Positions 1 through 30,371 are shown, numbered from the stretch's first letter. The stretch is 32,000 bases of DNA from Candidatus Freyarchaeum deiterrae (GCA_037305845.1 CP147778.1:1452259-1484258); one strand, 5' to 3'. Program-made: numbers and translations. Notes: generated by a model from the letters alone, not told the origin.

Positions 1-782
1 TTGATGTCCTAGACCCCGTGAACCCGTGTGAACCATTACGGTAACCTGATTCTCACTTAATCCTAAGACCTTGGCTGCGTCTTGATCAAAAATTTTCTCT
101 ACGTATTGAATCTCGAGAAAATGATTACCTGCCCCTAATGTTCCCACTTGGGCAACCCCTCTCTCCTTTGCTTTGCTTGACACTTTTGAAGTGTTCGCTC
201 CCTCCAATTTTCCATTCGCTTCGCAGTTTAAAGCGTCCTCTTCCCATCCGAAACCGTTTTTAATAGACCAGCTAACGCCCTCGGAAAGAATTCCGTCCAA
301 GTCTCTAGCTGAGAGTTTAATTTTTCTCTTAGATCCCAAACCACTAGGCACATTATCAAACATTTCTTTTGTTAACTCTTTTATCTTGGATTCAGCGTCC
401 TTCCTCTCAAGATTGGTTTTAATCACTCTAACACCGCAATTGATATCATACCCAACCCCGCCGGGACTTACAACTCCGTTGTCCTCAATATCAGTAGCGG
501 CTACTCCGCCTATTGGAAAACCGTAGCCCTGATGAGCTTCCCTCAGTAGAGGACATCCTCTCCTGAATCGGGCAGGGTTACGGAGAATTTTTTTATGCCT
601 GGCAGGCTGCATACGTTAACGGCTTGGATTAGAGTTTGATCCTTATAAATATCTTTAAGCAATACCTCGTTTGCAATAATTCTGGCTGGAACCCTCATGT
701 AGGGTCGATAATCTTTAGGAATCTCCCAAATGTTTTTATTAATCTGCTTAAGAGGAATATTTCTTGTACTCAAAACAATCAC
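1..782 (-). CDS. rtcB: RNA-splicing ligase RtcB, 5' part of the gene (continues past the left edge). Proposed exons are 782..567 and 537..1, separated by a 29-nt insert.
   Basis: Minus-strand translation 782->567 gives MIVLSTRNIPLKQINKNIWEIPKDYRPYMRVPARIIANEVLL...NVCSLPGIKKFSVTLPD. Translation 537->1, in a different frame, gives AHQGYGFPIGGVAATDIEDNGVVSPGGVGYDINCGVRVIKTNL...GAGNHFLEIQYVEKIF...VMVHTGSRGLGHQ. These are hallmark RtcB motifs, and the frame stays open to position 1. Confidence 0.85.
538..566 (-). other. Putative BHB-type mini-intron (29 nt) in the rtcB pre-mRNA
   Basis: RNA reads CCCG-AU|U-CAGGAGAGG-AUGU-CCUCUACUG-AGGG-AA|G. The inner helix is 9 bp with one G.A mismatch. The central helix is CCC/GGG plus one G.A pair, flanked by 3-nt bulges on opposite strands. 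Cutting after the 2nd bulge nucleotide removes 29 nt, including a UGA and the frameshift, and gives ...SVTLPD-A-HQGYGFPIGG. Confidence 0.55.
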
Positions 783-1307
783 CTCAGTTCAACAATAAAT
801 AAATCAATTCAGGGAGGGATATATTAGGTTAGAAATTTGACAGATTGATACTCCGCTTTGTTTAACATGGTTTATATCTGTAACTCTCTTAAAATATTAG
901 TTGTATTTATTTTTAATGCGTATACCAAATTCCAAAGTCCAGAGAAACAGTTTATCACTATTGATTGTTCGGTGCTTCTCCGTTTTTCTTAGTAGGTATT
1001 CCTGGTTTTATATGCCACTTCAAAGAGTTGTTGTATATAAAATTATCTAGTTTGCTCAGTAAGAAGATTAAGAATCTCTTAAAAGGGAAGTATTTTTAAT
1101 TAAATCAGAGTTTTGATATTGAATAGAACCAATGACTTCAATGAGAACCTAAGCTGAGAGCAGTTCTTAAATTGAAATTTAGGTTACTAGTATAGAACTA
1201 GCAAGCATTATTTCCATATTTTTGGGTACAAAGTAAGGAAGGTATGCGAAAAATTGAAAACTCCAAACACACAACTTAAAACCAAAAGAAAAGAGCGGCG
1301 ATGAAGT

Positions 1308-3089
1308 ATGCACCTAAGACAACCCATATGCGTAGTACTGGGACACATAGACAGCGGAAAAACCAGCATACTGGACAAAATAAGAGGAACCGCCGTACAA
1401 AAAAGAGAAGCAAGAGGCATAACCCAACACATAGGAGCAAGCATGCTGGACGCAGAAACCATCAAAGCCATAGGAGGAGAACTCATCAAGACATTCAACA
1501 TAACACTAACCATACCAGGCATCCTGGTTATTGACACACCGGGGCACGCGAGCTTCTATAACTTGCGTCGTCGTGGTGGTGCGGTTGCTGATTTTGCTAT
1601 TCTTGTGGTGGATGTTTTGAGTGGTTTTCAGGCGCAAACCTATGAGTGTGTTGATATTTTGAAGTCGCGTAAAACTCCTTTTTTGATTGCCGCTAATAAG
1701 ATTGATAGGATTAATGGTTGGGTTCCTTCGGGTTCTCTTTCGGTTCTTAAGAGTTTGGGTAGTCAACCTGATTTTGCTTTGCGTTTTTTGGATGAGCGTA
1801 TTTATGAGATTATGGGTGACTTGTCACGTCTGGGTTTTCCCGCAGATCGTATTGACAGGGTGCGTGACTTTACTCGTAATATTGCCATAATTCCTACTAG
1901 CGCTGCTAATGGTGAGGGAGTTGCTGAATTATTAGTCGTTCTGGCAGGTTTGGCTCAGCAGTATTTAGCTAAACGTTTAGAGGTTAGTGAAGGCCCCGCC
2001 AGAGGAGTGGTTTTGGAGGTAAAAGAAGAGCCAGGTTTGGGTCACACTGTAGACGCAATAATTTATGATGGTATTTTGCGCAGTAATGATTCGATAGTTT
2101 TCGGTGGTTTGGGAAAGGCGGTTAGTACCTCGATTCGCGCTTTATTGTTGCCCAAGCCTTTAGATGAGATGCGCGACCCACGCCAACGTTTTGACAGCGT
2201 TGATGAAGTTGTGGCTGCTGCCGGCGTGAAAATCGTTGCTCCTGGTTTAGAAGGGGTAGTTGCAGGAGCTCCTTTACGCGTTATTGATAGTTCTTCCAGG
2301 CTTGAAGAAATTGAAAAAGAAGTTCAAGCGGATGTAGAGGCAATACGCATTGAGACCAGTAAAAGTGGCGTTATTCTTAAGGCGGATACTTTGGGCAGTT
2401 TAGAGGCTTTAGTGAATTATTTTAGTGAACGCAAGGTTTCTGTGCGTTTAGCAGATGTGGGTGACGTAAGCAAACGCGATGTGGTTGAGGCAGCGGTGGT
2501 TGCAGATAAGGAGCCTTTTAACGCAGTAGTTTTGGCTTTTAATGTGCGTATTTTGCCGGATGCTGAAGAAGAAGCGGAGGTTTCCGATGTCCCCATTTTT
2601 CGAAGCGATGTAATTTATGGTTTGTTTGAGGATTATGATAAGTGGGTTGCTGAGAAGAGGGAGGAAGAACGGCGGCGAGCTTTAGTGGGAGTGGTACGCC
2701 CGTTTAAGATTAAGATTTTGCCGGGCTTCATTTTTCGAAAGAGCAAGCCTGCCGTCGTAGGTGTGGAAGTTTTGGAAGGCTCAATGATCCCCAAAGTCAG
2801 ACTAGTTAATGGGGATAATCGGCGCGTGGGCGAGATTATGCAGATTCAGGACGAGGGCGAAACACGACAGGTGGCACATAGGGGTACTAATGTAGCTATT
2901 AGTATTCGCGGCCCTACAGTAGGACGTCAAATTCACGAGGGCGATGTTTTGTATTCGGATATTGCAGAAGTTCAACTTGAAAAGCTCTCGCGAGAACTTG
3001 GGGAGGAGCTTAGTCCAGACGAAATGAATGTATTGAATGAAATCAAGAAATTCAAAAGAAAGGAACTTTTTAACTTTGACGAAAGTTGA
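1308..3089 (+). CDS. infB: Translation initiation factor aIF5B (IF2-like GTPase)
   Basis: 593-aa ORF with GTPase motifs GHIDSGKT (G1), DTPGH (G3) and NKID (G4). Length and domain order are typical of aIF5B. An in-frame TGA at 1302..1304 fixes the start at 1308. Confidence 0.9.
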   Translation: MHLRQPICVVLGHIDSGKTSILDKIRGTAVQKREARGITQHIGASMLDAETIKAIGGELIKTFNITLTIPGILVIDTPGHASFYNLRRRGGAVADFAILVVDVLSGFQAQTYECVDILKSRKTPFLIAANKIDRINGWVPSGSLSVLKSLGSQPDFALRFLDERIYEIMGDLSRLGFPADRIDRVRDFTRNIAIIPTSAANGEGVAELLVVLAGLAQQYLAKRLEVSEGPARGVVLEVKEEPGLGHTVDAIIYDGILRSNDSIVFGGLGKAVSTSIRALLLPKPLDEMRDPRQRFDSVDEVVAAAGVKIVAPGLEGVVAGAPLRVIDSSSRLEEIEKEVQADVEAIRIETSKSGVILKADTLGSLEALVNYFSERKVSVRLADVGDVSKRDVVEAAVVADKEPFNAVVLAFNVRILPDAEEEAEVSDVPIFRSDVIYGLFEDYDKWVAEKREEERRRALVGVVRPFKIKILPGFIFRKSKPAVVGVEVLEGSMIPKVRLVNGDNRRVGEIMQIQDEGETRQVAHRGTNVAISIRGPTVGRQIHEGDVLYSDIAEVQLEKLSRELGEELSPDEMNVLNEIKKFKRKELFNFDES

Positions 3090-3234
3090 TTAGAGGAGTG
3101 CCAGTTTTTGGAAGATTTTATATGATACGAGGCAATTTTGGCAGATTCGCTTAATAATATGAGAAACACTAATTGCGAATGGTTTAAAAGGAGTTCTTGT
3201 TAGTATTTTTTGTACCTATTGGAGGTTATTGTTA

Positions 3235-3603
3235 ATGCCCGGATTTAAACTGGTTATTTCTGATCCAGAGAAAGGTCGTTCTTTGCAGATTGAGGTTGAT
3301 GAAGCCAAGTCTCGTTCCTTGTTTGGTACGCGTATAGGCCAGAAGGTCGATGGTGGACCTCTGGGTTTCGGTGGGTATGAGTTTTTGATTACTGGGGGAA
3401 GTGATAAGGATGGTTTTCCAATGCGTAAGGGCATTCACGGTCCTATGAGAAAGAATATTCTTATGAGCACCGGCCCAGGTTTTCATCCTCCATACGAGGG
3501 ACAGCGGAAGAGAAAGAAAGTTCGAGGGGATACTATCTCAGAGGATATGGCTCAAGTGAACATGAAGATTGTTAAAATGGGTGCTAAGAACATCTTTGAA
3601 TGA
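3235..3603 (+). CDS. rps6e: 30S ribosomal protein S6e
   Basis: MPGFKLVISDP...GGSDKDGFPMRKG...KRKKVRG matches the S6e family. The ATG at 3235 lies 9 nt after GGAGG (3221..3225). The ORF-track start at 3229 is a TTG. Confidence 0.85.
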   Translation: MPGFKLVISDPEKGRSLQIEVDEAKSRSLFGTRIGQKVDGGPLGFGGYEFLITGGSDKDGFPMRKGIHGPMRKNILMSTGPGFHPPYEGQRKRKKVRGDTISEDMAQVNMKIVKMGAKNIFE

Positions 3604-3687
3604 TATGATGTTTATTGACCTATTTTTCTCGAATATTGGTGCTGCTGTCTTTATTTTCCCAGAATTCTGGAATTTGGAGGTTTTCTG

Positions 3688-4203
3688 ATGAGTACATATA
3701 AGTTGGGATTAGGTTCTACAGTAGAGTTACGGTTTGCATGTGACGCTATGCTAGGACGCCTTGCACGGTGGCTTCGTTTACTTGGCTATGATACCTTTTA
3801 TTCTTCTGAAATCAAGGACGCTGAACTTTTGGAGGTTTGTTCGCAAGGAAATTGGATTCTTCTCACTCGGGATGTGGAATTTTTTAAGCAAGCAGTTTTA
3901 CAAGGTTTAAGAGCAAAGTTACTACAGGAGAATTCTTTTCAGAACCAGTTCGCCGAGGTTGTGGAGAGTTTCGGGTTAAATCTAAGAATTACGCCCGAAG
4001 GTTCTCGCTGTCCGACCTGCAACGGGTTAATTCATAGTATTGACAAAGAGGAAGTTAAGAATAAAGTTTCTGCGAATACCTTGAATTCCTACGATTCTTT
4101 TTTTATATGTTCTAACTGCGGTAAGGTATACTGGATGGGCCGGATGTGGCGATCTATAGTTAGAATTTGCGAAATGGTTAGCATGAAGTTAGGGAAAAGT
4201 TAG
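3688..4203 (+). CDS. Mut7-C/DUF82 family PIN-like nuclease with a C-terminal zinc ribbon
   Basis: The N-terminal DAMLGRLARWLRLLGYD motif is typical of the Mut7-C RNase domain. CPTCNG...CSNCGKVYW forms a CxxC...CxxC zinc ribbon. Confidence 0.65.
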   Translation: MSTYKLGLGSTVELRFACDAMLGRLARWLRLLGYDTFYSSEIKDAELLEVCSQGNWILLTRDVEFFKQAVLQGLRAKLLQENSFQNQFAEVVESFGLNLRITPEGSRCPTCNGLIHSIDKEEVKNKVSANTLNSYDSFFICSNCGKVYWMGRMWRSIVRICEMVSMKLGKS

Positions 4204-4244
4204 GTTTTTTTGAGCCAATGCATCTATTTTTTGAAAAAAAATCG

Positions 4245-4282
4245 ATTTTTTGATAATTATATTTCTCTTTATAATATAAAAG
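4245..4282. repeat. Copy 1 of a 38-nt AT-rich imperfect direct repeat
   Basis: attttttgataattatatttctctttataatataaaag versus copy 2 atattttgataattatatttctttttataatttgaaag, about 33/38 identical by eye. Confidence 0.7.
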
Positions 4283-4356
4283 TTTTTATGAAAGATTAAA
4301 TTTTTCGATATATATGATTTTCAAGTTATTACATATATTTTTACAAGAAATATTAG

Positions 4357-4394
4357 ATATTTTGATAATTATATTTCTTTTTATAATTTGAAAG
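4357..4394. repeat. Copy 2 of the 38-nt AT-rich imperfect direct repeat
   Basis: Same unit as 4245..4282, offset by 112 bp, inside the 285-bp intergenic region upstream of the AMMECR1 gene. Confidence 0.7.
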
Positions 4395-4488
4395 ATTTTA
4401 GGAAAAATTTTTTTATAAGTGTTGTTATGAGATTTTTGAACTAAACTTAATGTGATTTCTAGACTCTTATTCTGAGAGGAATGGTATA

Positions 4489-5103
4489 ATGACTCTTGAG
4501 GAAGGTAGATTTCTAGTTAAGCTCGCTCGTCGGGCTGCTGAGACTTATGTTAAAGAAGACGTGAAGATTAAGGTTCCTGAAGAAACCCCAGCTAAGCTGC
4601 TTGAGAATAGTGGCGTTTTTGTGACTCTGAATACTGTTTCTAAAGGAGGAGATAAGCGGTTGCGCGGTTGTATAGGTTTCCCTCTCCCCTACCTTCCTTT
4701 GGCTCAGGCGGTCATCGAGTCAGCAATCAGCGCTGCCAGCGCAGATCCCAGATTTCCTCCCGTGGAGCCTAGTGAATTGGACGATATTGTGGTCGAGGTT
4801 ACTGTTTTAACACCTCCTACTTTAATCGAAGCTAAAGAGCCTAAGGAATACCCCGACAAGATTAAAGTTGGTAAACATGGTTTGGTAGTTGAACGGGGGC
4901 CCTACAAAGGGTTGCTTCTCCCTCAGGTTCCAGTGGATTGGAACTGGAATGAGGAAGAGTTCTTGTGTGAATGCTGTGTTAAAGCGGGGCTTCCACCCGA
5001 TTCGTGGTGCGATAAGAAAACCAAAGTCTATTGTTTTCAAGGAATTATTTACGAGGAAGAAAGTCCTAATGGAGAGATAGTTGAGCGTTCATTGAAGGAG
5101 TAG
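4489..5103 (+). CDS. AMMECR1-domain protein
   Basis: GVFVTL...LRGCIGF...DPRFPPV...EVTVLTPP...GLLLPQV are the conserved AMMECR1 blocks. At 204 aa the size is typical. Confidence 0.8.
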   Translation: MTLEEGRFLVKLARRAAETYVKEDVKIKVPEETPAKLLENSGVFVTLNTVSKGGDKRLRGCIGFPLPYLPLAQAVIESAISAASADPRFPPVEPSELDDIVVEVTVLTPPTLIEAKEPKEYPDKIKVGKHGLVVERGPYKGLLLPQVPVDWNWNEEEFLCECCVKAGLPPDSWCDKKTKVYCFQGIIYEEESPNGEIVERSLKE

Positions 5104-5125
5104 TTATTTACGGAGGCTTTCAGGA

Positions 5126-6301
5126 ATGAGAGTGTACTTTTCCCCAAATGGAATGGCTCTGGGTCATGCGGGACGCCTTGTTCCTATTGCAAAGAAACTA
5201 ATCAGTAATGGCGACGAGGTTCTCTTCTCAACTTATGGAGATGCGGTGGGTTTTGTTAAGGCGGCGGGTATGCCTGTGGTTAGTGTACCTAGAATGGGAC
5301 TTGTTGAGAGTCCAGATGGTACTATTGAGATGCTCAAAACCAGTATTAGATGGCCTAAGTATGTTTGGATTTTTATGAAGCAGGTCATTTCCGAAATTAG
5401 GCTCTTGAATAGTTTCAAGCCCAGTGTAGCGGTATCAGATTCTCGTTTGTCCACTGTTTTGGCCTGCTGGTTGTTGAGAATTCCTTGTCTTCTGTTACTG
5501 CATCAGATTAAGTTGCTAGTACCTCACAAGAAGAAGCTCAGTAGTTTTAAGGAAAAGCTGAAGCATTTTGCGGAGTGGTTCATTCTTTACACTACCCACC
5601 TACTTTGGAATAGGAGCACTAAGATTCTTGTTCCAGATTTCCCACCTCCGTATACCATATTTAAATCTAATCTTGACGTCCCGGAGAAGCTCATGAGTAA
5701 GGTGGAATTTGTTGGACATGTAATTGAAGAACCTCAGTCTCTGCTACCGAGCCAAAAGGATTTGAGGAAAAAGTTGGGGTTCGATGATCGCCCACTCATC
5801 TTTGTCGGGGTTTCTGGAACCAAAAAAGAGAGAGAACTTCTAGCTATGAGGCTTGATGAAATTTTTAGCGAGTTTCCCGATGAGTATAATATTGTAATGA
5901 CTTTGGGAAGACCAGATAAACCGGACAACTTTGTGCAAAAGGGTAATCTGCGTATCTATAATTGGGTCACAGATAGATATCCTTTAATTAAGGCCTGTGA
6001 CCTCGTGGTATCTAGATCAGGTCATAACACTTTAGCTGAGTCCATGTATTATGGTAAACCGTCAATTCTTATCCCAACGCCTGCACACACTGAACACCAA
6101 GAGAACTCCAAGTCTGCAGAGCGTATGGGTATTGCTAAAGTCGTGCAACAAAAGGATCTATCGAAAAATATACTGTTGGAGAGTGTAGAGGAAATCCTTA
6201 ACCACTCAGAGTATAAAACGCGTATAAACAGAATCCAGAAAAAAATTTCAAATTTGGATGCTATTCAATCGATTATAGATGCCGTCTATCAATTTGGATA
6301 A
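5126..6301 (+). CDS. Glycosyltransferase, GT-B fold (GT1/GT28, MurG-like family)
   Basis: The N-terminal MRVYFSPNGMALGHAGRLVPIAKKL and the C-terminal SRSGHNTLAESMYYGKPSILIPTPAHTEHQENS resemble the MurG/UDP-glycosyltransferase nucleotide-sugar binding region. The substrate is unknown. Confidence 0.6.
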   Translation: MRVYFSPNGMALGHAGRLVPIAKKLISNGDEVLFSTYGDAVGFVKAAGMPVVSVPRMGLVESPDGTIEMLKTSIRWPKYVWIFMKQVISEIRLLNSFKPSVAVSDSRLSTVLACWLLRIPCLLLLHQIKLLVPHKKKLSSFKEKLKHFAEWFILYTTHLLWNRSTKILVPDFPPPYTIFKSNLDVPEKLMSKVEFVGHVIEEPQSLLPSQKDLRKKLGFDDRPLIFVGVSGTKKERELLAMRLDEIFSEFPDEYNIVMTLGRPDKPDNFVQKGNLRIYNWVTDRYPLIKACDLVVSRSGHNTLAESMYYGKPSILIPTPAHTEHQENSKSAERMGIAKVVQQKDLSKNILLESVEEILNHSEYKTRINRIQKKISNLDAIQSIIDAVYQFG

Positions 6302-7321: not shown

Positions 7322-8530
7322 ATGAATCAGAAGGAAGTAAGTGAATCCCCAGTCGAAATTCTTAAGGAATGGAAAAAAAGTGTTCTTGTACGTTACGGGG
7401 AATTGTCGCTTAAGAGCCCTTCAGTTAGAAGCTTTATGGAAAATATTCTGATTAGAAACATAAAGTGGATGCTTGATAGGAAAAAAATTCCTTATGAGAG
7501 TATCATCAGAGAGAGAGGGAGAATCTTTCTGGACAGCGACTTTCCCAGAAAAGTGTGTGAGGGCCTCTCAAACGTTTTTGGCATAGTGTCAACCAGTCCG
7601 GTTCTGGAAACATCCACGGACATAGATGAAATCGTACGTCTCTCGCTACGGGTAGCCGAAACTATAATCGGATCGAATGAGAGCTTCGCAGTTAGAGCTA
7701 GAAGAGTGGGGACTCATAAATTCACTTCTATCGATGTTGAAAGAATAGTGGGAGAAGCGATTCTTAATAAAACAAGTAGACTAAACACCAAAGTAAATCT
7801 AAAGAAACCTGATAAGTACATTTTCATAGAGGTCAGAGAGAAAATGGCTTATGTATACCACGAGGTTTTCAAAGGGCCTGGAGGCTTACCTTATAGTTGT
7901 GAGGGAAAGATAGTTTCACTTTTCTCGGGGGGTATAGACAGCCCGGTTGCTGCATGGTTGATGATGAAACGCGGATGTAAGATAATTCCAATATATTTTG
8001 ATAACTCCCCATACACGGATCAATCTACGCTTAATCGGGCTATGAGTGTAATAAAAATCTTAAGAGAATATGCTACTCATGACAGATTTTATATGTACGT
8101 AGTTTCTCATGGTAAAACCCTAGAAAAGGTAATTAATCAGGCTCCTCGTAATCTGACCTGTCTTCTATGTAAGCGAACACTTTATCGCGTAGCTACTGCA
8201 ATAGCAGAAAGAGAGGGAGCGAAAGGCATTGTGACAGGTGAGAGCTTAGGACAAGTCGCAAGCCAAACATTAGACAATCTTACGATTCTAAACGAATCTA
8301 CGAATCTCCCAGTATACCGCCCTCTAATAGGACTAGACAAATTGGAAATAGAAGAAATCGCCAGAAAAATTGGAACATACGAATCTTCTAGCATTAACGT
8401 TACAAGTTGTGGAGCTGTACCAAAGAAACCAGCAACAAGAGCAAAATTGGAAAAGGTAAAGTCAGCTGAAGAAATTATCAACTCTATACAAGAAGAGATA
8501 AATTCCGTTGAACGTGTTTATATAGACTGA
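7322..8530 (+). CDS. thiI: tRNA 4-thiouridine synthase / thiamine biosynthesis protein ThiI
   Basis: An N-terminal THUMP-like region is followed by the PP-loop SGGIDSPVAAW and the GESLGQVASQT motif. Confidence 0.85.
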   Translation: MNQKEVSESPVEILKEWKKSVLVRYGELSLKSPSVRSFMENILIRNIKWMLDRKKIPYESIIRERGRIFLDSDFPRKVCEGLSNVFGIVSTSPVLETSTDIDEIVRLSLRVAETIIGSNESFAVRARRVGTHKFTSIDVERIVGEAILNKTSRLNTKVNLKKPDKYIFIEVREKMAYVYHEVFKGPGGLPYSCEGKIVSLFSGGIDSPVAAWLMMKRGCKIIPIYFDNSPYTDQSTLNRAMSVIKILREYATHDRFYMYVVSHGKTLEKVINQAPRNLTCLLCKRTLYRVATAIAEREGAKGIVTGESLGQVASQTLDNLTILNESTNLPVYRPLIGLDKLEIEEIARKIGTYESSSINVTSCGAVPKKPATRAKLEKVKSAEEIINSIQEEINSVERVYID

Positions 8531-8634
8531 ATCATTCGAAGGAATATTTCCGAAAATTGAGTACTAAAAAAGGTTTAAATACATCTTTTTACTTGGTTTT
8601 TGCACCTATAAGTTAATTTAGCTGAGGGAATTTA

Positions 8635-9075
8635 ATGGTTGGTAAATCACCCAAAGGCGAGTTTGCAGCTCGTACACTCAAGACAAAAAGTAAAAACGCG
8701 AGATGGAAAGACAGATATTATAAACGTAGAATGTTACACCTGGACGTTAAAGCAGACCCCTTAGAGGGCGCTCCGCAGGCTCGAGCCATCGTGCTTGAAA
8801 AGGTTGGAGTGGAATGCAAACAGCCAAACTCTTCCATTAGAAAATGCGTCCGAGTACAACTCATTAAGAACGGTAAGCAGATTACGGCTTTCCTACCGGG
8901 CGATGGTGCATTAAACTTTGTTGATGAACATGACGAAGTCATTGTAGCGGGTATAGGCGGAGCTAGAGGCGGTGCCTTTGGTGATATACCCGGAGTGAGA
9001 TGGAAGGTTGTTAAGGTCAACGGAGTGTCTTTAGAAGCCCTTCTTATAGGAAAGAGAGAAAAACCAATAAGGTAA
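8635..9075 (+). CDS. rps12: 30S ribosomal protein S12
   Basis: [30 protein letters not shown]...[13 protein letters not shown] is canonical archaeal S12, 146 aa. Confidence 0.95.
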
Positions 9076-9166
9076 GGATTATTCCCAAAATTATCTTAAA
9101 TTATAATTAATGTTAACACTAAGACGAAATAATCAGCATTTTCCACAAAAAGAGGTAAGTAATGAG

Positions 9167-9733
9167 ATGAGCGAAATCAAAGTATTTGGAAAATGGATAA
9201 CAGATGATGTTGAAGTGCATGATGTAGGACTAAGAGGAAGTATTAATCTCACTCCAAAATATGTTCCTCATACTGACGGCCGGCATGAACATAGAAGATT
9301 TATGAAAGCCCGGGTTTTTATAGTAGAGAGGCTGATTAACAAGCTACAGAACCCTGGACGAAATGCTGGCAAAAAAATGAAGGCCCTTAACATTGTCAGA
9401 CTCACTTTTGAAATTATTAATATAAAGACCGGGGAAAATCCTTTACAAGTCCTAGTTAATGCTGTAGAAAACGCGGCTCCTAGAGAAGAAACCACAAGAA
9501 TCAGTTACGGTGGAATTGTTTACCATCAAGCGGTGGACGTCTCTCCCCTGAGGCGAGTGGATCTTGCCTTAAGGTTTATAACAAATGCAGCCAGAAAAGC
9601 AAGTTTTGGTACACAGAAAACCATAGAGGAATGCTTAGCAGACGAATTAATTTCAGCGGCCAATAATGAAACTAAAAGCAGTGCGGTAATGAGGAAAGAA
9701 GAAAAAGAGCGGATAGCAACATCAGTACGATAA
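9167..9733 (+). CDS. rps7: 30S ribosomal protein S7
   Basis: MSEIKVFGKW...PREETTRISYGGIVYHQAVDVSPLRRVDLALR matches S7. I prefer the ATG at 9167 (GAGG upstream) over the ORF-track start at 9110, because the upstream 19 residues match nothing in S7. Confidence 0.85.
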   Translation: MSEIKVFGKWITDDVEVHDVGLRGSINLTPKYVPHTDGRHEHRRFMKARVFIVERLINKLQNPGRNAGKKMKALNIVRLTFEIINIKTGENPLQVLVNAVENAAPREETTRISYGGIVYHQAVDVSPLRRVDLALRFITNAARKASFGTQKTIEECLADELISAANNETKSSAVMRKEEKERIATSVR

Positions 9734-29519: not shown

Positions 29520-29972
29520 TTACCTCTTCTTTCTCCTCACTCCCACGGTTTGACCTTTACGACCCGTGGTTTTGGTATGCTGCCCTCTGGACTTGAGTCC
29601 TAAAGCGTGGCGTATACCTCTGTAACTCTTCGTTTTTCTCAAATCATCTATATCATTTTTGGTGATTAAAGTTAAATCATTGCCAATAAAATGTTTATCC
29701 TTACCTAAACTAACATCCTTCTGCCGATTCAACATCCAACCAGGGATACCGAATTTCATTGGATCATCTAGAACCTCTTCAACCTTTTTAACATCCTGAT
29801 CCGAAACATATCCCATTCTAATATCCGGATTTAGACCAGTCACCCGGATTATAGCTTGCGCTAACCTAATGCCTACGCCTTTAATACCCTTCAAAGCGTA
29901 AAGGAACCTTTTTGCACCATCTAAATCGGTACCTGAAACCCGAACAATATAACGATAACTTTCCGACGACAA
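29520..29972 (-). CDS. rps13: 30S ribosomal protein S13
   Basis: YRYIVRVSGTDLDG...LKGIKGVGIRLAQAI...YRGIRHALGLKSRGQHTKTTGR. I propose the TTG start at 29972 (GGAG 9 nt upstream). The ORF-track start at 30038 would add about 22 residues with no S13 counterpart. Confidence 0.85.
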   Translation of the reverse strand: MSSESYRYIVRVSGTDLDGAKRFLYALKGIKGVGIRLAQAIIRVTGLNPDIRMGYVSDQDVKKVEEVLDDPMKFGIPGWMLNRQKDVSLGKDKHFIGNDLTLITKNDIDDLRKTKSYRGIRHALGLKSRGQHTKTTGRKGQTVGVRRKKR

Positions 29973-30096
29973 TAGTGAACACTCCTTGTTAGGATGCAAA
30001 AACATCAAAACATCCAAATAAACTTTACGTATAAACATGTGATAAGCAACAATACAGAGTATAACTTTAAAAAATAAACATTTCTATTTAAAATAC

Positions 30097-30107
30097 GCTG
30101 AAAACAA
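30097..30107 (+). promoter_or_regulatory. TATA-like box upstream of the tRNA
   Basis: aaataaatata ends 33 nt before the mature tRNA 5' end. That spacing is compatible with an archaeal TATA box if a short leader is present. Confidence 0.35.
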
Positions 30108-30139
30108 ATAAATATACAAGGCTGTAAACTAAATAGCAA

Positions 30140-30284
30140 GCAGGGATAGCCAAGTGGTAAACGTTAAACGTATCCGCAACGGCGCAGATAGTCTACAATG
30201 GTAGATAGCGTAAGCCTGGAGAACTTTCTTGGAAGCCTGTGATCCGTAAGGATCGCGTGGGTTCAAATCCCACTCCCTGCGCCA
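30140..30284 (+). tRNA. tRNA-Ser (anticodon GGA) precursor with three introns and a genomically encoded CCA
   Basis: Acceptor stem GCAGGGA/UCCCUGC, discriminator G, CCA at 30282..30284, T-arm GUGGG-UUCAAAU-CCCAC, long variable arm GAUCC-GUAA-GGAUC. Removing 30160..30179 (20 nt, D-loop), 30188..30213 (26 nt, 5' strand of the anticodon stem) and 30222..30233 (12 nt, position 37/38) leaves an 84-nt class II tRNA. Its anticodon arm is CAGGC-CUGGAGA-GCCUG. Confidence 0.8.
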
Positions 30285-30371
30285 TTATTTGTTCCTTTTA
30301 ATATAACTTGAAAAGAAATTCCATCTCTAAATTAAAATTCTTAAATCTTTAAAACTTGAGTCTAGTACTTT

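Follow-up and report, generated by a model that had tools for sequence, protein, structure and literature searches.

Among the closest described counterparts of the composition switch analyzed here, which lies inside the gene for the archaeal translation initiation factor aIF5B (infB), are the strand asymmetries of replication origins (bacterial oriC, human 'N-domains'). The switch is found in a stretch of 32,000 nucleotides from Candidatus Freyarchaeum deiterrae (GCA_037305845.1 CP147778.1:1452259-1484258), which we call the window and number from its first nucleotide. As at an origin, the sequence is A/C-rich on the left and T/G-rich on the right in a rotationally symmetric arrangement, the sign flips sharply, and the G-C and T-A skews change jointly. 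Unlike an origin, the aIF5B centre is local, reaching over 0.4-5 kb rather than a replichore, and its tract is ~95% G/T at free sites, compared with origin skews of 0.05-0.3. It also lies in coding DNA with no origin recognition box (ORB), DNA unwinding element or orc1/cdc6 gene nearby, and a second centre is found 2 kb off.

Three other systems share part of this pattern. The displaced heavy strand of vertebrate mitochondrial DNA accumulates C>T and A>G on one strand, with a very strong synonymous bias and a gradient that is monotonic with distance from the start point and independent of gene orientation, as observed here. The present case differs in being a locus on an archaeal chromosome with two arms of opposite sign and a kilobase-scale reach, and we know of no strand-displacement replication in this archaeal setting. 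Transcription and R-loops leave a one-strand G/T excess in mammalian CpG-island promoters, immunoglobulin switch regions and regions of somatic hypermutation, with an onset a few hundred nucleotides from the promoter and a decay over 1-5 kb. In contrast, the archaeal bias ignores gene orientation, crosses convergent genes, is far larger, and is absent from other highly expressed genes. Finally, kataegis, which affects damaged single-stranded DNA at breaks and during break-induced replication, also produces strand-coordinated transitions over kilobase tracts with a strand switch at a point. These are single somatic events, however, while the aIF5B pattern is fixed at the species level, saturating, long maintained and under purifying selection.

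A full-text literature search (local skew, strand-coordinated transitions, Asgard/Bathyarchaeota origins) returned no description of local, saturating, intragenic strand-asymmetry centres in archaea. The footprint in aIF5B is readable from sequence, sharply localized, near-saturating and conserved between species, which is an unusual combination. The window comes from an Asgard archaeon whose nearest named relatives are Candidatus Jordarchaeum, Freyarchaeota and Sigynarchaeota. For a complete Freyarchaeia genome, the cumulative GC skew was found to be consistent with bidirectional replication (PMC11291895).

Base composition switches within the aIF5B gene

We expressed the composition of third codon positions as keto3, that is (G+T-A-C)/n, in sliding windows of 70 codons. 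The aIF5B gene (1308..3089, + strand) is intact and encodes 593 amino acids with the Pfam domains GTP_EFTU, IF-2 and GTP_EFTU_D4; its closest named homologues are the IF-2 proteins of Jordarchaeum, Freyarchaeota and Sigynarchaeota. The composition switch within this gene, which occurs in frame, is real and extreme. The third positions of codons 1-73 comprised 40 A, 26 C, 7 G and no T, while those of codons 74-173 comprised 59 T, 28 G, 8 C and 5 A (T+G, 87/100; Fisher exact p=3.2e-26 for the contrast). With the T3 frequency of the window (0.30), the probability of finding no T among 73 codons is 4.9e-12. Arginine was encoded by AGA in 4 of 4 cases before the switch and by CGT (11) or AGG (2) across codons 86-230. 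The two keto3 extremes of the whole 32 kb, -0.86 and +0.86, adjoin each other within aIF5B and correspond to z=-4.5 and +5.2, the remaining genes of the window ranging from -0.57 to +0.43 (mean -0.06, sd 0.18).

A cumulative keto walk placed the flip at 1524/1525, between codons 73 and 74, at the start of L|VIDTPGH. This centre, designated D2 (1524..1547), corresponds to codons 73-80, L-V-I-D-T-P-G-H, the G3 motif of the GTPase, and the change of sign was completed within ~10 codons. On its left, an arm with an A/C-rich + strand (and hence a T/G-rich - strand) extends over 1121..1524. It covers the promoter, the leader and aIF5B codons 1-73, is strongest at 1237..1526, and appears in the walk as a fall of 105 over 403 nt, from a local maximum at 1121 to a minimum at 1524. 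The leader (1237..1307) contained 13% T and 49% A. On the right, the + strand is T/G-rich over 1525..6055, comprising aIF5B codons 74-593, the S6e, Mut7-C and AMMECR1 genes, the 5' half of a GT28-type glycosyltransferase gene and all spacers; the walk rose by 725 from 1525 to ~5500-6055, while no span of equal length elsewhere exceeded +355. The third positions of the two blocks mirror each other, with A.55, C.35-.36, G.10 and T.00 in block 1 and T.55, G.39, C.03 and A.04 in the tract.

A first-pass annotation, made by reading codons from the sequence, had already described a T-free block of 73 codons with only 7 ending in G, T/G-ending codons from codon 74 on, the change in arginine codons from AGA to CGT and AGG, a T-poor leader, a breakpoint at VIDTPGH, and two blocks that are complements of each other on one strand. 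The computed values agree with it on all these points, and the sliding-window skew confirms that both extremes of the 32 kb fall in aIF5B. It had also mentioned a weaker 'patchiness' in rpoA', but keto3 in that gene is inside the normal range of the window.

The asymmetry belongs to the DNA strand

The asymmetry is a property of the DNA strand, independent of gene, mRNA or codons. All spacers inside the tract, as well as the leader, carried the bias, and non-coding spacers were as skewed as coding DNA (keto +0.49 and +0.57 in the related lineage L005, described below). Rightward of the centre, third-position T/(T+C) fell from 0.83 to ~0.6, and G/(G+A) from 0.64 to ~0.35, by ~5 kb, both monotonically with distance and regardless of gene boundaries. 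The asymmetry reached ~4.5 kb rightward and ~0.4 kb leftward. Among the + strand genes of the right arm, keto3 was +0.40 in the gene for ribosomal protein S6e (3235..3603), versus -0.1 to -0.4 in the other ribosomal protein genes, +0.22 in the Mut7-C RNase-domain gene (3688..4203) and +0.26 in AMMECR1 (4489..5103); the arm faded out inside the gene of the glycosyltransferase with a GT28 C-terminal domain (5126..6301). A decay through S6e, Mut7-C and AMMECR1 had been noticed in the first-pass annotation and is borne out here, with the spacers biased too. Arginine codons shifted from AGA to CGT/CGG rather than to AGG.

We considered whether selection on the mRNA or its decoding could produce such blocks, through a 5' end that is unstructured and U-poor and uses A/C-ending codons read by Watson-Crick pairing, and a following part with T/G-ending codons read by wobble. 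A/C-ending codons are indeed preferred in the highly expressed genes of this genome, the A/C block begins at the leader, and the right-arm genes are all co-directional, so that an effect on the operon mRNA would be compatible with the window taken alone. However, the bias was neither confined to codons, as it extended to the spacers and leader, nor oriented with the strand that is read, the genes on the opposite strand within the arms of related loci having the mirror bias (see below). Furthermore, first and second codon positions drift as well, S6e is pushed away from the preferred codons of the genome, and selection on RNA would not be predicted to make the two blocks exact complements in composition. 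Such mirror-complement blocks are expected for one process acting on opposite strands, unlike two regimes of mRNA selection. An explanation by mRNA selection is therefore largely refuted by the strand-fixed behaviour, and we regard it as very improbable; the biased spacers and the mirror-biased genes of related loci also speak against the overlapping coding that the first-pass annotation had proposed along with it.

The switch is shared by related lineages

Contigs from four separately assembled sequencing runs encoded an identical aIF5B protein and matched the window with 100% identity across the junction, over 3.8-10.6 kb. More distant orthologues were found in L005 (94% amino acid identity; JGI), L006 and L007 (88%; ENA), L009 (83%; Ca. 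Jordarchaeum madagascariense), and L010 and L093 (82% and 81%; GTDB genome Jordarchaeia QZM_A3 and a JGI metagenome). At least five related lineages (L005, L006, L009, L010 and L093) switch at the same codon, and L008 and L092 have only a weak version of the switch. In L005 and L006, the remainder of aIF5B is ~95% G/T at third positions for ~2 kb (keto3 +0.8 to +1.0) and the S6e gene reaches +0.66 and +0.79, respectively; the bias then declines via Mut7-C, AMMECR1 and the glycosyltransferase gene to reach zero at ~4.5-5 kb. The strength of block 1 co-varied with that of the tract between lineages.

These comparisons bear on the possibility that the switch is a recombination or gene-conversion junction, the horizontal transfer of part of a gene, or a metagenomic assembly chimera. 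The abruptness of the junction and its location at a conserved motif, the easiest place for an exchange between diverged alleles, would fit with this. Yet the four assemblies are identical across the junction, the nucleotide identity of the window to L005, L006 and L008 is uniform over it with synteny conserved, at least five lineages share one switch codon, and separate branches, those of the sister lineages L005 and L006, continue to generate the bias (see below). The identical assemblies, flat identity and shared switch refute a chimera or a strain-specific recombination as the primary cause, although this was among the options put forward in the first-pass annotation, and we consider any explanation of this type extremely improbable.

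Direction and tempo of the substitutions

To polarize the substitutions, we used an alignment of 8.6 kb comprising the window, L005, L006 and L008, with L008 as the outgroup and the genes QPRT..S7 as controls. Nearly all polarized changes were A>G and C>T on the right of the centre and G>A or T>C on the left, in agreement with the earlier suggestion of C->U and A->I type transitions on opposite strands around ~1530. In codons 231-593 of aIF5B, L005 had converted 23 of 32 third-position A/C to G/T and only 2 of 198 G/T to A/C, which amounts to a rate ratio of ~70. The ratio was ~14 for L006 in the same codons and 0.6-0.9 in the control genes. The substitutions in block 1 mirrored those of the tract. 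Among A/C>G/T changes, transitions exceeded transversions ~12:1 in the tract versus ~4:1 in the controls, and first and second codon positions drifted in the same direction (tract, 76 vs 51; controls, 74 vs 74). As expected for a deamination gradient, one strand thus had an excess of C>T and A>G, transversions were few, and the trend with distance was monotonic irrespective of genes.

The window lineage behaved differently from this, with 100 GT>AC against 5 AC>GT differences at 2000..3090, mostly derived according to the outgroup L008. Its ancestor therefore had a saturated tract. The bias is ongoing in L005 and L006 and has weakened or shortened in the window lineage, where it is eroding; because of this weakening, a decay is already visible within aIF5B. 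Taken together, the comparisons establish that C>T and A>G form a site-anchored, strand-symmetric ('divergent') gradient on the strand leaving the centre 5'->3', which is maintained across species and filtered by purifying selection.

A second centre in RtcB

A second A/C-to-T/G centre, D1, with the same polarity as D2, is located in RtcB at the catalytic-motif codons GSTAH|GAGR. The window contains the 5' part of RtcB (1..771, - strand), which is divergent from aIF5B, and D1 lies ~500 nt left of the window start (~8195..8216 in L001); the corresponding positions are 8168 in L010 and ~4050 in L093. D1 was moderate in the window lineage and L005 (keto3 -0.3 to +0.5 in gene sense) and very strong in L010 and L093 (-0.9 to +1.0), where the left arm measured ~1.3-1.4 kb and the right arm at least 1.8 kb. 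In these two lineages the right, T/G(+) arm spans RtcB codons 1-350, which are A/C3-rich (coding keto3 -0.5 to -1.0) because the gene is on the - strand inside this arm. The left, A/C(+) arm covers a + strand membrane-protein gene with keto3 values of -0.67 and -0.60, reaching -1.0 near the centre. This gene is genuine, with 20 synonymous and 5 non-synonymous differences between L010 and L093. Inspection by eye disclosed no convincing motif shared by the aIF5B and RtcB centres.

We also observed that the RtcB frame is broken by a 29-nt insert (538..566, - strand), between ...L-P-D and A-H-Q-G-Y-G-F-P-I-G-G, which, if retained, leads the frame into a TGA. An insert of 29-30 nt is also present in L005, L008, L010 and L093. 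Its hairpin stem varies by lineage, being AGAGG/CCUCU in the window and GGAGG/CCUCC in L010. Pairing is also possible between the exon flanks, and this exon-exon helix contains the only fully compensatory pair of the consensus fold. The insert may represent an archaeal mRNA mini-intron, perhaps with a relaxed bulge-helix-bulge motif, or a recoding site; its host gene encodes the tRNA-splicing ligase itself. It is possibly because of this insert that RtcB of L008 was missed by gene callers.

Bathyarchaeia and the question of specificity for aIF5B

A similar strand-fixed centre was found in the aIF5B gene of one Bathyarchaeial family, sampled from peat or wetland (L015, L084, L095 and L134; ~59% aIF5B identity). 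It is situated at ~codon 125-140, near the NKID motif, with arms of ~2 kb on the left and ~3.3 kb on the right (tracts at 688..4300 in L015 and 4400..7300 in L134). These arms cover genes of the opposite strand, namely guaA and a DUF4342 gene. The convergent guaA in the T/G(+) arm of L015 had a keto3 of -0.61 in its own sense, and an upstream - strand gene in L134 a keto3 of +0.51. The related lineages L034, L099 and L056 switch at ~codon 60-100.

To assess specificity, we ranked the kilobase-scale divergent jumps in 163 archaeal aIF5B loci (2.06 Mb). Twelve of the 20 strongest were located at most ~550 nt from the start of aIF5B. They represent, however, only about two independent in-gene clades (Jordarchaeum and one Bathyarchaeial family) and a few plain effects of divergent genes. 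Therefore, a specificity for aIF5B is not established. A further ~43 kb of related contigs contained no other centre of comparable strength, the exception being a modest one where the S13 operon begins, described below.

The genes crossed by the arms are relevant to an explanation based on transcription. An internal bidirectional start at ~1525 might generate R-loops or exposed non-template strands that collect C>T and A>G, with a ~280-nt antisense RNA on the left, ending at an oligo-T terminator in the conserved AAAAATTGAAAA, and a sense transcript through the operon on the right. The polarity agrees, the outgoing non-template strands being T/G-rich, and the transcript lengths would account for the unequal arms. 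TATA-like SFFNL codons are present 25-30 nt right of the switch (AGTTTTTTTAAC in L005, L006 and L010, TTCTATAAC in the window), and the left arm stops at an invariant element that resembles an archaeal terminator (TTTTCAATTTTT on the - strand). However, the TATA-like runs may be a by-product of the T3 bias, and the arms pass smoothly through convergent genes (guaA in L015, the membrane-protein gene in L010 and L093), which would need pervasive read-through. A G/T excess on the non-template strand of each gene, as transcription would be expected to leave, was not found in RtcB, the membrane-protein gene or guaA, and the highly expressed ribosomal-protein and RNA polymerase genes are A/C3-rich, with no T/G excess on their coding strand. 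We consider this mechanism unlikely.

The position of the centres also raises the possibility of a recurrent nick, a double-strand break (made for example by a homing endonuclease at conserved codons) or a fork barrier, followed by resection or repair synthesis over kilobases with the production of transitions. The centres fall in the codons of conserved motifs (DTPGH in aIF5B, HGAGR in RtcB, near NKID in Bathyarchaeia), which are typical targets of selfish endonucleases; strands newly made in break-induced or synthesis-dependent repair grow 5'->3' away from the break, matching the observed polarity; and arms of 0.4-5 kb would fit with resection or repair tracts. Against this, the centre is clade-dependent (codon 74, ~97 or ~130), so that no single target sequence is involved, and simple 5'->3' resection with deaminated 3' tails would give the opposite sign. 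A parasitic cutter should moreover select resistant synonymous variants, and not persist between species. No intein or intron was present at the centres among ~170 aIF5B loci, a weak negative, as intein-bearing archaea were not targeted, and a literature search for intein sites in IF2 or RtcB found none. Damage or stalling of this kind at the centre seems to us quite improbable. The aIF5B matches of ~2.6 kb in L017 and L074, which had suggested inteins, were explained by read-through into adjacent genes.

Other features of the window

The genes that follow aIF5B on the same strand encode, in order, S6e, the Mut7-C RNase-domain protein, AMMECR1, the glycosyltransferase, QPRTase, ThiI, S12 and S7. 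Upstream of aIF5B, alignment revealed a promoter-like element, CGAAAAATTGAAAA (1247..1260, + strand), which is identical in 8/8 lineages, while the surrounding intergenic sequence is otherwise only ~44% identical across them. The element precedes the aIF5B ATG by 48-61 nt, and the Shine-Dalgarno-like AGAGGGG that comes after it is conserved too. CGAAAAATTGAAAA is probably the transcription factor B recognition element (BRE)/TATA box of the aIF5B promoter. A convergent-type keto jump of -0.42 to -0.45 occurs close to it (1228-1249), at the end of the strong section of the left arm. A second conserved intergenic block, AAAGAGTTGTTGTATATAAAATTATCTAG (~1021..1050), includes a strong TATA-like box. 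A 15-nt palindrome at the switch itself, ACCAGGCATCCTGGT, was discarded as a candidate element, as it is broken in L005, L006, L010 and L008.

The region between RtcB and aIF5B varies in length, from 536 nt to ~1.65 kb with an extra open reading frame (ORF) in L008. The L006 and L007 contigs, which belong to separate assemblies (ENA ERZ4756917 and ERZ4756919), both start within it, ~495 nt upstream of aIF5B. These coinciding contig starts and the differences in length and content suggest a region that is variable or hard to assemble.

Long ORFs run antisense to RtcB or aIF5B at 173..526 (+), 1208..1537 (-) and 1506..1766 (-). The first of these, the only one of the three that was searched, had no Pfam match. 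All three probably result from the skewed composition, through the loss of stop codons from some frames. The whole window contained no Rfam match at the gathering threshold and no tRNA.

At ~29650..30370, in a region of - strand genes, we noticed a modest divergent jump (0.55) at the start of the S13-S4-S11-RpoD operon, which is conserved and occurs also in L089 (~20218) and L091 (~20103). The 5' part of S13 is T/G3-rich (+0.6) and the upstream 3' end of Cbf5/TruB A/C3-rich (-0.4 to -0.7); the jump is within the upper range of the normal variation of the window. In L091, a GatE-like gene at 7870..9535 is not called in the NCBI record despite conserved synteny. Its orthologues in the window and in L089 have GatB_N/GAD/GatB_Yqey domains, and an in-frame interruption or stop-codon recoding may be the reason why the gene is uncalled. 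Recoding is reported for Jordarchaeia (PMC9723677).

Discussion

How could such a gradient arise? The interpretation that we find most attractive, and to which we would give a little less than an even chance, is that position ~1525 marks the centre of a local, evolutionarily persistent, strand-asymmetric gradient of transition mutations, one that would belong to the DNA itself. C>T and A>G would accumulate on the strand heading 5'->3' outward from the centre at every free site, that is at third positions, at the synonymous first positions of leucine and arginine codons, in the leader and in the spacers, up to ~95% G/T in the strongest lineages. The cause would most likely be a repeated one-sided exposure of single-stranded DNA or an asymmetric DNA synthesis proceeding outward from a fixed point. 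This geometry would be that of a replication or strand-displacement initiation site with one strand exposed on each side. The left arm would end at the aIF5B promoter, where, speculatively, CGAAAAATTGAAAA might act as a barrier. In the window lineage, the process has weakened, and the distal tract is now reverting by G>A and T>C.

We favour a site of the origin-like or strand-displacement-like kind because the geometry fits with synthesis from a fixed point and because of the parallels offered by G/T-rich leading strands and by the mitochondrial displaced strand. The change of skew sign seen at origins, with a G/T-rich outgoing strand, was found at D2 and also at D1 in L010 and L093. The first-pass annotation had listed a very local strand-asymmetric source of mutations among its options, and this is the kind of explanation that we retain; the classical features of an origin, however, were not found.

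Several observations weigh against a site of this kind. ORB-like repeats are absent around the centre, the region 560..1600 containing merely weak two-copy pairs at chance level. The centre has no AT-rich unwinding element but consists of coding DNA with ~46-50% GC, and there is no Orc1/Cdc6 gene within ~10 kb upstream or 30 kb downstream. The strand-fixed keto3 of the flanks (+0.025 on the right, -0.055 on the left) has origin-like signs but is within noise, and the skew is back to baseline by ~5-6 kb, with no persistence over a replichore. The presence of two centres ~2 kb apart, in RtcB and aIF5B, is odd for an origin, the difference in arm length (0.4 vs 4.5 kb) requires an extra assumption, and the shift of arginine codons from AGA to CGT/CGG requires a secondary codon selection. 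The outward direction presupposes that exposed DNA is deaminated or that G.T misinsertion occurs; under other repair spectra, such as A.C mismatches left uncorrected, it would be reversed. Divergence data alone do not separate a mutation bias from an equally strong fixation bias. Finally, a local rate asymmetry of ~19-70-fold is, to our knowledge, far above any replication or transcription skew documented in cellular chromosomes.

Whatever its origin, the footprint distorts the codon usage of aIF5B, S6e and their neighbours. Consequently, tests of expression level or horizontal transfer that rely on codon usage are affected, as are nucleotide-level phylogenies of aIF5B, which is in common use as a marker; assembly and coverage may be affected as well. 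If the footprint marks the start of DNA synthesis or of single-strand exposure, candidate sites can be located in lineages that have not been cultured. A broader and more doubtful proposal is that Jordarchaeia and some Bathyarchaeia possess unrecognized, fixed, kilobase-scale initiation sites for DNA synthesis or strand displacement in essential genes, active so frequently that synonymous sites would become saturated with deamination-type transitions. Such sites might, equally tentatively, be called 'micro-origins' or programmed D-/R-loops, and their footprints would then provide a map of initiation sites in uncultured archaea.

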